DNA of 64,000 nucleotides from the NCBI GenBank assembly GCA_020137815.1, contig CM035353.1, positions 2,666,001 to 2,730,000 on the forward strand, given 5' to 3'. The notes under the pieces were generated by a model. The model searched no databases and was not told where the DNA came from. It saw nothing but the letters and a program-made list of their open reading frames with translations. How positions within the stretch are numbered: the stretch's first letter is position 1; every line of letters begins with the position of its first letter. This document shows positions 21,301 through 35,647 of the stretch, piece after piece. The position numbers were made by a program, and so were the translations under genes. The stretch comes from Hormiphora californensis. Its lineage: Eukaryota; Animalia; Ctenophora.

Positions 21301-24300
21301 GCGTTTATTAAATTCAGCTAATATTACAAAATGCATGTCGTAGTATAACAAAATGCCTGATACTAGATCCAAAAACCAAACAAGTTTGGTGGATAGCCGG
21401 GGCCGCAGCAATTAAAAAACGTGCGAAAGTTTTGATACATGAACTTTCGGGGCCTGGGGTGCTGTTAAATTCGCGTTTCCATGATAGTCAGCCGTTCTTT
21501 CAAAACACACTTGTATTTATATTCTGTAAAACAGATTCTGAAACGATCCACTGCGTGCAGTATATTATACGTGATATGTGTGGAGCTATTTGTATGATAA
21601 TGTGGAATCAAAAATAGTGATAACTTACAATCATTGCGATAGTTTTCCTGGCGTATAGTTTGAAAATGTTGCTGGTTATAATCATGGAAACGCGAATTTA
21701 ACAGCACCCCAGGCCCCGAAAGTTCATGTATCAAAACTTTCGCACGTTTTTTAATTGCTGCGGCCCCGGCTATCCACCAAACTTGTTTGGTTTTTGGATC
21801 TAGTATTTTGTAAAGACATCATAATACACACATCTTGATCTCACGGCGCATCTGGCATCATGGGGGATAGATCGAAGACCAGCCCCTCAACCTCCTCCTG
21901 TTATTCTTCCCAATTCCCACCTCTTCCTGTTATGCTTCCCAACGGTGGACGGACAGACGGACACTTTTAGTTAACTCCACGATCTGCTGATTTCTAAACC
22001 CTGAATGATCTTTGGGGGGGTGCAGCCCCAAAAAAAATTCAAACTTTTTCCGAAACCCAGGGTATGGTTGGTTTTTTGTTGGTTTTTTTTTGGTTGAAAT
22101 TTCTTTGATTTTTTTGGTCGTTTTTGATTTTTTTTGGTCGTTTTTGATTTTTTTTGATCTTTTTTGATTTTTTTTATCGTTTTTGATTTTTTTTGAATTT
22201 TTTTGATCGTTTTTGAATTTTTTTGATCGTTTTTGATTTTTTTTAATTGTTTAATGTTGAACAAAATTGTTATGTTCTAACCCTTCTTTACATTTGTAAA
22301 GATGTTATGTGTTTTTGCACAATCTTGGTCACGTGATCAGCTCGTGTACGTGATCACTGATCAGCTATCACTCTCACTCACAGTGAGAGACAGTTGTTAG
22401 AGCGGGAGGGAGAGCGCAGTACACACTTTTCAGCACTCCTCACGAGCACGTGAGTCCCCACAATGCAGTACATAGAATAGGTCGGTATACAAATAAGCGG
22501 GGCACGCAAAACACAGTCTAGCTAGGCAAGAACAAAAAAGTTCAAAAAAAATAAAAAACGATCAAATAAAATCAAAAACGATCAAAAAATTCAAAAAAAT
22601 CAAAAACAACAACAACAACAACAAAATGGATTTATATACCGGCTAAATAGACAAGTACTCTCGATTGGTTCGAAGAGCAGTTGCCATTCATAGCGGTTCT
22701 CTCATCCTATCTTGACATATTGGTTGACAAAAGGTCTTAAAAGGTAACTCATACTGGTGACATATAACTGACATATATAGTAGACTTTATTAACTCTCAA
22801 CACTTGGTGACTGTGGGTGACAAGTATAATCAGAAAAAATAATAACAAAAATGATAAACTGAAAAGTATCTTAGATTATAAAGAAATATGTGACAGCAGC
22901 AGGGGTGACCGTGTGAGAAACGGGGACTAATGAATAACCGAAAAGAAATTATTAAAGACTGACGTCGAAAACCAAATAAGGTCTTTCAGAGAAGGTAACA
23001 GTAGCATCGAACAGGTAGGTCTTCAGGCGAATACGGAAGGAGTCCTCTGAAGGTGCGTCTCTAAGGTTCTCCGGTAGGTTGTTCCAGACATGGGGGAGAT
23101 ATTGGGATATTCTCCTTTTTCCCAGTTTGCTCACTTTCACATTTCCAGAAGGTAGCTTTAACTTGTAATGGTCTACTTTACAGCTCTGACGAGTAGACTT
23201 TTGCACTGCAGTATTTTCATCATGTTCCACTAGATCCTGAAGGTACTGAGGGGCACTTCCATAATAGATCTTGTACCCTAGTAAACAGATTTTGAAGAAA
23301 ATCCTCTTCTCAATCGTAAGGATATGGGAATCACGGTAGAAGGGGTCCAGATCAACTTTCCTCTCTCTGACTCCATGGATGTATCTTATTACTTGATTCA
23401 TTAGTCCTTTCAGCGGCTTGATGGTAGAGGCCGGCAGGTTGAAATACAGGGCATTGCAATAGTCCACTTTGGATATGACCAGCTGGGAGGCAAGCATCAG
23501 ACGTAGAGGTTTATCAATGAATCGGCGGATCTGCCAGAGGTTCCTCATAGTAACTCCAGCATTCCTCTTGACCATGGAGATTTGACGTTTCATATCCATT
23601 TGTTCATCAAGATAGATACCAAGGGTCTTTCCCGATTTTCCAGCCATGTCCATGGGGGAAATGATGTTCCCATTTAGCTCAAGTGTCAGGTCACTCTCCT
23701 CACGTACAGTATCCATCTTCTTCTTCTTTCCCAGGATAAGAAACTCAGTTTTATCCTCATTAACCATCAGTCTGTTCTCAATCATCCACGTTCTTACCTC
23801 CTCCAAACATTTCTCAATAATCTCCTTTGAACCTGTCCAGCCTTCCACAGGGCAGAATCCGATGTATATTGTGCTATCGTCTGCATAGAGTCGTATTGTG
23901 AGTCCATACTTCTTTACAATAGGTTCTAGTGGTTCCACATATAGGGCAAAAAGGACAGGACCAAGGAGAGAGCCTTGGGGTACTCCATATTTGAGAAAGA
24001 GCCTAGGTGAGAGGGCATCTCCAATTTTAACTTTATAGCTCCTGTCATTGAGATAACTAGTGAACCATTCGAGTACCGTTGATCTAATTCCAAACCGCTT
24101 CTCCAGTCTCATCAATAGCTGAGGGTGATCGATGGTATCAAATGCAGCCGAAAGATCAATTTGAACGACTGCCACAACATTTCCTCTGTCCATTTCCCCA
24201 AGGACATCATCAACAACTCGCACCATGTGTGTCTCACAGCTGTGGTTGGGGCGAAAACCAGATTGGCAGTCACCTCGCAGGTCGTTTTTCTCCAAATGCT

Positions 24301-35647: not shown

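Follow-up and report, generated by a model that had tools for sequence, protein, structure and literature searches.

Ctenophore LINEs that begin with the host spliced leader and a possible trans-splicing route to their 5' ends

Two intact LINEs of the ctenophore Hormiphora californensis, located in the window of DNA analysed here (the whole stretch of 64,000 nucleotides), begin with the host spliced leader (SL). Since these elements, LINE A and LINE B, and about ten others start in this way, they were likely copied from leader-spliced RNA. We put at roughly 0.7 the probability that LINE RNA is trans-spliced with the SL by the spliceosome before reverse transcription, which would explain the leader heads. 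It seems to us just as probable that the 5' end is renewed repeatedly, by trans-splicing at the terminal AG of the integrated head.

Two intact LINEs and their surroundings

LINE A (27393-22605) and LINE B (33673-28819) are both encoded on the minus strand of the window. In each, ORF1 and ORF2 are uninterrupted, and ORF1 is followed by an ORF2 with an N-terminal APE domain and an RT domain, the organization of an APE-type two-ORF LINE. The head of LINE A consists of the last 41 nt of the host SL and ends at the splice-donor AG (27353..27393). It is followed by a pyrimidine-rich 5' UTR of 214 nt (27139..27352), which has short motifs in common with that of LINE B, an ORF1 of 404 aa from the first ATG (25924..27138), an overlapping ORF2 of 1011 aa, stop to stop, for APE endonuclease and reverse transcriptase (22952..25987), and a 3' UTR (22605..22951) that closes with a (TTG)n tail (22625-22605). 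Cys/His knuckle-like motifs were recognized by eye at the C-terminus of this ORF1, for which Pfam gives no match. LINE B has the last 39 nt of the SL (33635..33673), a 187-nt 5' UTR (33448..33634), an ORF1 of 429 aa from the first ATG (32158..33447), an ORF2 of 1013 aa, stop to stop, with APE and RT (29228..32269), and a 3' UTR (28819..29227) with a (TTA)n tail (28839-28819). The overlap of the LINE A ORFs spans 25924-25987 (minus strand), and there is no ATG ahead of the first APE motif; in three elements from other samples (L003, L008 and L034) the first ORF2 ATG likewise falls inside the domain. In these four elements ORF2 is possibly started by frameshifting or non-AUG reinitiation.

According to the initial annotation, both LINEs open with the same 38-mer, and identity between them stops one base past its AG. 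The 38-mer occurs exactly twice in the window (27353-27390 and 33635-33672, minus strand) and in 0 of 100 shuffles, which rules out a chance match, and the two sequences part where they were said to. The leader is indeed at the 5' ends, but the heads are longer than 38 nt when aligned to the SL-RNA gene described below (41 nt in LINE A, 39 nt in LINE B). The two elements had also been described as clearly diverged throughout. This is correct for the ORFs, which are 43% (ORF2) and 33% (ORF1) identical, with agreement at 56 of 170 four-fold sites (26% expected by chance), a near-saturated level. It is too strong for the 5' UTRs, which share short motifs just past the SL and one exact 16-mer, and are diverged homologs rather than unrelated sequences.

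Assignment of these elements to the L2 group is based on L2-like motifs; there are no clade-named references among the listed homologs of the A and B ORF2. The structure fits the L2/CR1 lineages, in which a microsatellite tail is typical. These lineages of the Jockey superfamily also combine an ORF1, of types I and II and with PHD variants, with an APE-RT ORF2; unlike LINEs A and B, they have no SL head mentioned in the accessible text (PMC4120745).

LINEs A and B are 24% identical to LINE C (55945-60600, minus strand), a CR1-like element of the same window with an intact RT frame and a low copy number in public runs. No SL was found within three mismatches at the LINE C 5' end, and no convincing target-site duplication was identified. 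Read cover drops near 60590, in a picture that is swamped by a 64-bp high-copy repeat. A short repeat of very high copy number, with thousands of contigs per DNA run, has its 64-bp end at 60888-60951.

The insertion site of LINEs A and B is a T-rich 10-bp repeat that lies between them (27394..27490) and resumes at 33675-33716 and 22528-22606. Target-site duplications are not readable, because the target is itself a repeat. The sequence upstream of the SL-terminal AG is largely T-rich and is free of AG for 184 nt (LINE A) and 84 nt (LINE B), and no AG comes between a long T-rich tract and the SL AG in either case. Both LINEs are nested in a small element (22010-33780) whose ends are G/C runs and whose inverted arms consist of 10-bp T-rich repeats. 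At the tail end of LINE B there is a 1.3-kb fold-back element (27493..28818), with 554-nt arms that are 99% complementary and TA on each side, which is separate from the LINEs. Near-perfect fold-backs with arms of 450-550 nt are found at 27582-28720 (the one at the LINE B tail), 2854-3897 and 37740-38654.

Just upstream of LINE B, and on the LINE strand, are two exon-like open stretches with AG/GT borders (34742-34599 and 34148-33987, minus strand). One of these candidates has a 92% match in a single public protein fragment that covers that exon only; the search for a host gene with the upstream exon candidates gave one blank, and found no gene spanning the LINEs. A duplicated segment (12801-14093 and 18744-19993, 95-98%) has exon-like frames on the plus strand with repeated WGVN/W-x2-IGG motifs, which we take to be, possibly, a lectin-like beta-propeller. 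Also present is a 799-aa ORF (40156-42555, minus strand) with PHD-like and AT-hook-like motifs by eye and no match in Pfam.

Identity of the host leader

The 38-mer, which the initial annotation took for the trans-spliced leader of pleurobrachiid ctenophores, proved to be the 3' part of the published Hormiphora californensis leader. That leader is present on 56% of Iso-Seq reads and in 718 genomic copies, and the leader motif occurs 491 times in the Mnemiopsis genome; the nature of these genomic copies goes unexplained in the accessible text (PMC8527503).

We scanned metagenome contigs for exact matches to the SL core, defined as the last 29 nt of the leader. The 34 loci recovered (one listed twice) comprise 23 mRNA-like contigs, one array of SL-RNA and 5S genes, and 10 loci of genomic type. 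On the mRNA-like contigs, the core is no more than 21 nt from the contig end and an ORF begins 1-64 nt downstream. These contigs are unrelated to each other, and 20 of the 23 match ordinary Pfam families, including G-alpha, ubiquitin, innexin and calreticulin. From their form, we infer that they are trans-spliced mRNAs with the leader at their 5' ends. The array, L022 (1-1945), consists of 778-bp tandem units, with 5S rRNA in alternation. The exon runs into a GT donor and then an intron that folds (z -3.9), which makes this an SL-RNA gene. The four mRNAs with at least 10 upstream bases match this gene over 43, 43, 44 and 39 nt. Because two of the four match over 43 nt, the full SL appears to be 43 nt long. 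Scans of viral contigs and prokaryote genomes, with the SL core and with ORF2, gave no match.

Structure of the leader heads

All 12 heads, two in the window and 10 at the genomic-type loci, stop at the donor AG as set by the L022 gene, with no intron behind it. The match to that gene extends over 41 nt in LINE A, 39 nt in LINE B and 40, 41, 42, 43, 35, 41, 42, 42, 41 and 38 nt in the others (35-43 nt, mean 40.4), and none continues into the upstream or promoter DNA of the SL gene. Identity within the 29-nt core is built into the choice of the 10 loci, yet the unselected bases 5' of the core continue to match the SL for 6-14 nt at every one of them. Eleven of the 12 are 5'-truncated by 1-8 nt, each matching the host SL right up to the break, and inherited flank bases are absent from the truncated heads. 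The terminal AG is the sole AG in 11 of the 12, and there is no tandem relic. By blastn (E<=0.1), neither the SL intron nor the spacer nor the 200 nt upstream of the SL was detected in the window or at the 10 loci, and no second SL word of at least 12 nt lies beside the window heads. The UTR motifs next to the head are conserved within each group.

Reverse transcription of a capped, spliced RNA that stopped only a few bases short of the 5' terminus would be expected to leave this pattern. Because the heads stop at the donor and lack the SL intron and promoter, the leader is spliceosome-derived, rather than a target site or part of a flanking repeat; we consider it nearly certain that it was placed by the spliceosome. 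The earlier view that the LINEs are not in an SL gene holds for all 12 elements. The question raised there, whether the 38-mer might belong to the fold-back element beside the LINEs, was settled by L021, a family A element (ORF1 94%) that keeps its SL head in a different flank, and the fold-back origin is ruled out.

Leader-headed elements in other samples

The 10 genomic-type loci were recognized by 13-470 nt of non-SL flank ahead of the leader and by a UTR that is distinct or of greater length; the flanks point to an origin in DNA. They comprise six LINEs of the A/B clade, one CR1-like LINE, two ORF1-type elements and one candidate with a PHD-type ORF1. Nine are retroelement 5' ends, and the tenth, L031, probably is too. 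No retrocopy of an ordinary gene was recognizable among the 10. As the search demanded the exact core, copies with a decayed leader or none are invisible to it.

The A/B-clade loci (L003, L007, L008, L015, L021 and L034) match both ORFs of LINEs A and B, and the ORFs are intact in L007 and L015. L020 encodes ORF1 and an APE-containing ORF2 that by blastp matches LINE C and not A or B. L032 (457-1620), an SL-headed element that is complete at about 1.15 kb, ends in a (TAA)n tail and has a single ORF, ORF2 being absent. Its predicted structure resembles human LINE-1 ORF1p (Foldseek E 8e-7) and its five closest homologs are on contigs of 1.2-1.3 kb, so it is likely a non-autonomous ORF1-only retroposon. 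L016 is related to it (E 1e-14 between the two). For L031, the Atlas lead is to a PHD-type ORF (score 0.91). Sequence searches gave no name to L016, L031 or L032, and the fold search named L032. Despite their different ORF1 types, L016, L020, L031 and L032 have a short GC-rich UTR motif in common within the first 60 nt past the SL. L016, L020 and L032 keep TTTYAG 6 nt past the head and L031 begins just beyond that point, which hints at a shifted splice junction.

An ORF2 tree was computed with FastTree from 29 rows, including 22 of 120 listed homologs and leaving out L020 (a short fragment) and L003 and L021 (partial ORF2). Six SL-headed rows span the branch that holds LINEs A and B, which are separated by about 1.7 substitutions per column.

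In a public DNA run, a 144-nt contig joins the LINE B UTR to the SL with zero differences, at a depth of 1486; the B-body contigs among the matches listed have depths of 470-776, although contig depth is not copy number. The best-matching DNA run may come from the window's own sample, and its support for the junction is weak. A variant LINE B subfamily in a second sample has the identical UTR-SL junction. In three DNA runs, 22-24 contigs each exit the SL end into differing sequences. No LINE B UTR joined to non-SL upstream DNA was found among 24 of 141 loose-end rows. This is a weak check on the initial annotation's third ground for refutation, full-length copies without the SL; the other two, a 38-mer missing from mRNA 5' ends or belonging to the fold-back, are contradicted. 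One RNA-like run with the same species label contains SL contigs and leaves the LINE B body uncovered, and is neutral as evidence.

A proposed cycle of 5' end renewal and its alternatives

In the cycle that we propose, transcription would begin either in upstream host DNA or at the head, and the transcript, which includes the start of the integrated copy, would be spliced at the AG that closes its leader. The old head would be replaced by a fresh, capped 43-nt SL, and ORF2 would copy the SL-capped RNA by target-primed reverse transcription, usually halting 0-8 nt before the cap. With the terminal AG as the sole AG in almost every head, the same junction would be rebuilt in each cycle, without tandem relics or loss of UTR. 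The argument for renewal is that the heads stay perfect across lineages at saturation and across ORF1 types, and that their 5' truncations lack inherited flank bases. The heads of LINEs A and B are identical although their silent sites are near-saturated, and the same head is present on the other ORF1 types, those of L020, of L032 and L016, and of L031.

Several observations count against renewal. Among the contigs, none was a LINE RNA whose leader is non-templated. A G before AG is a disfavoured acceptor context, and the terminal AG of the heads has a G in that position. The TTTYAG of L016, L020 and L032 looks like a stronger acceptor, which re-splicing, if efficient, could be expected to choose. 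The conserved UTR motifs beside the head are as an internal promoter could look. The search was biased towards SL-bearing copies, and LINE C lacks an SL.

Some of these observations would suit a head that was captured once or a few times and then inherited as a promoter or translation signal under selection, with RNA starting there and no re-splicing. Conserved motifs adjoin the head, the junction register is stable over the A/B clade, and the GAG acceptor context is weak. In Ascaris, the SL exon acts as a promoter element, a subject on which our literature search found no paper. However, inheritance requires that at least three ORF1 types each captured the SL independently, and the truncated heads match the host SL to the break without inherited flank, so we judge this explanation unlikely.

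Distinctly improbable, in our estimate, is that the SL is a passive tag and SL-headed copies are by-products, the active sources having an outron and promoter of their own and no SL. Trans-splicing is common enough for this, at 56% of Iso-Seq reads (PMC8527503), and the authors of the flatworm and Schistosoma studies see integrations of trans-spliced elements (PMC12582326, PMC5832876). The choice of loci for their SL and the SL-less LINE C are also compatible with a passive tag. Against it, the contig with the LINE B UTR-SL junction is deeper than the B-body contigs among the matches listed, other sequence upstream of the B UTR is absent from the 24 of 141 loose-end rows, and both window copies, L007 and L015 keep intact ORFs.

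CRE and NeSL elements target spliced-leader genes (PMC3636483) and tandem SL genes exist in the host; sources in the SL-RNA array, inserted at the exon-intron border and driven by the SL promoter, might give rise to dispersed copies that carry the exon. Like LINEs A and B, NeSL and CRE/SLACS/CZAR are non-LTR elements preceded by SL sequence; unlike them, they have an RLE and a single ORF and are site-specific in SL genes (PMC3636483). Assignment of LINEs A and B to NeSL/CRE/SLACS was rejected, as they have an APE and two ORFs, are dispersed, and neither is in an SL-RNA gene. The missing SL intron, spacer and promoter at 12 elements rule out insertion into SL genes, and several unrelated lineages would have to share one site; we regard an SL-array source as very unlikely. 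A join of LINE RNA to free SL RNA by template switching or ligation, of the kind that gives U6-L1 chimeras, merits next to no credence: SL RNA is presumably abundant, but all 12 junctions are exactly the donor joined to the start of the element UTR, with no intron bases.

Comparison with known systems

Close parallels to the leader heads are found in flatworms. In parasitic species, 597 partial-leader loci were reported near LTR and LINE elements, within 500 bp (PMC12582326), and in Schistosoma mansoni six partial-leader loci are at retroelements (PMC5832876). As in the ctenophore heads, these are SL exons without an SL intron beside retroelements, for which integration of trans-spliced RNA was proposed (PMC12582326, PMC5832876). 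In contrast to the ctenophore heads, the leaders are partial and the loci are a filtering by-product defined by proximity (PMC12582326), and the Schistosoma authors allow for assembly chimeras (PMC5832876). In the ctenophores, intact elements of several lineages begin exactly with a near-complete leader.

Dinoflagellate SL-relict retrogenes, the products of an mRNA recycling to which the proposed cycle is similar, are also retroposed, SL-headed DNA in which the integrated SL provides the AG for the next trans-splicing, but they are host genes with tandem truncated relics derived from an internal AG (PMC3229502). The ctenophore LINEs share with them a DNA-encoded 5' SL and lack the tandem relics on host genes, being mobile elements with single heads. 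In Hydra, about 30% of TE Iso-Seq reads carry an SL, another case of TE RNAs that gain the host SL in an animal; this is at the RNA level only, and genomic heads are not mentioned in the accessible text (PMC12220107). Our literature search, which covered sources other than subscription papers and Repbase, found no account of SL-headed ctenophore LINEs, and there is nothing on SL-headed LINEs in the accessible text of PMC7986045, PMC9911081, PMC11067881 or PMC2566580. The integration of trans-spliced retrotransposons had been proposed before, in passing, for flatworms (PMC12582326, PMC5832876). What is likely new is the SL head as a general feature of several ctenophore LINE lineages, including intact elements, with a renewing cycle as its likely cause.

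Implications for ctenophore genomes

It is conceivable, though we hold it only tentatively, that a 5' end of their own has been lost from the majority of ctenophore LINE lineages. Host read-through would then transcribe them, and trans-splicing at the AG of the leader they carry would release them with a precise, capped start each time, a self-renewing, promoter-less cycle in an animal that would explain most dispersed SLs. LINEs keep a working 5' end although reverse transcription truncates them, which is usually explained by an internal promoter. If renewal is true, a host splicing reaction supplies these LINEs with a renewable start. Of the 11 genomic-type SL loci in the metagenome sample, the SL gene accounts for one and retroelement heads for nine or 10; heads of this kind may explain many of the leader copies in the two ctenophore genomes (718 and 491). 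The SL head is a simple marker of full-length elements, and can lead to errors in gene annotation and in counts of SL genes.
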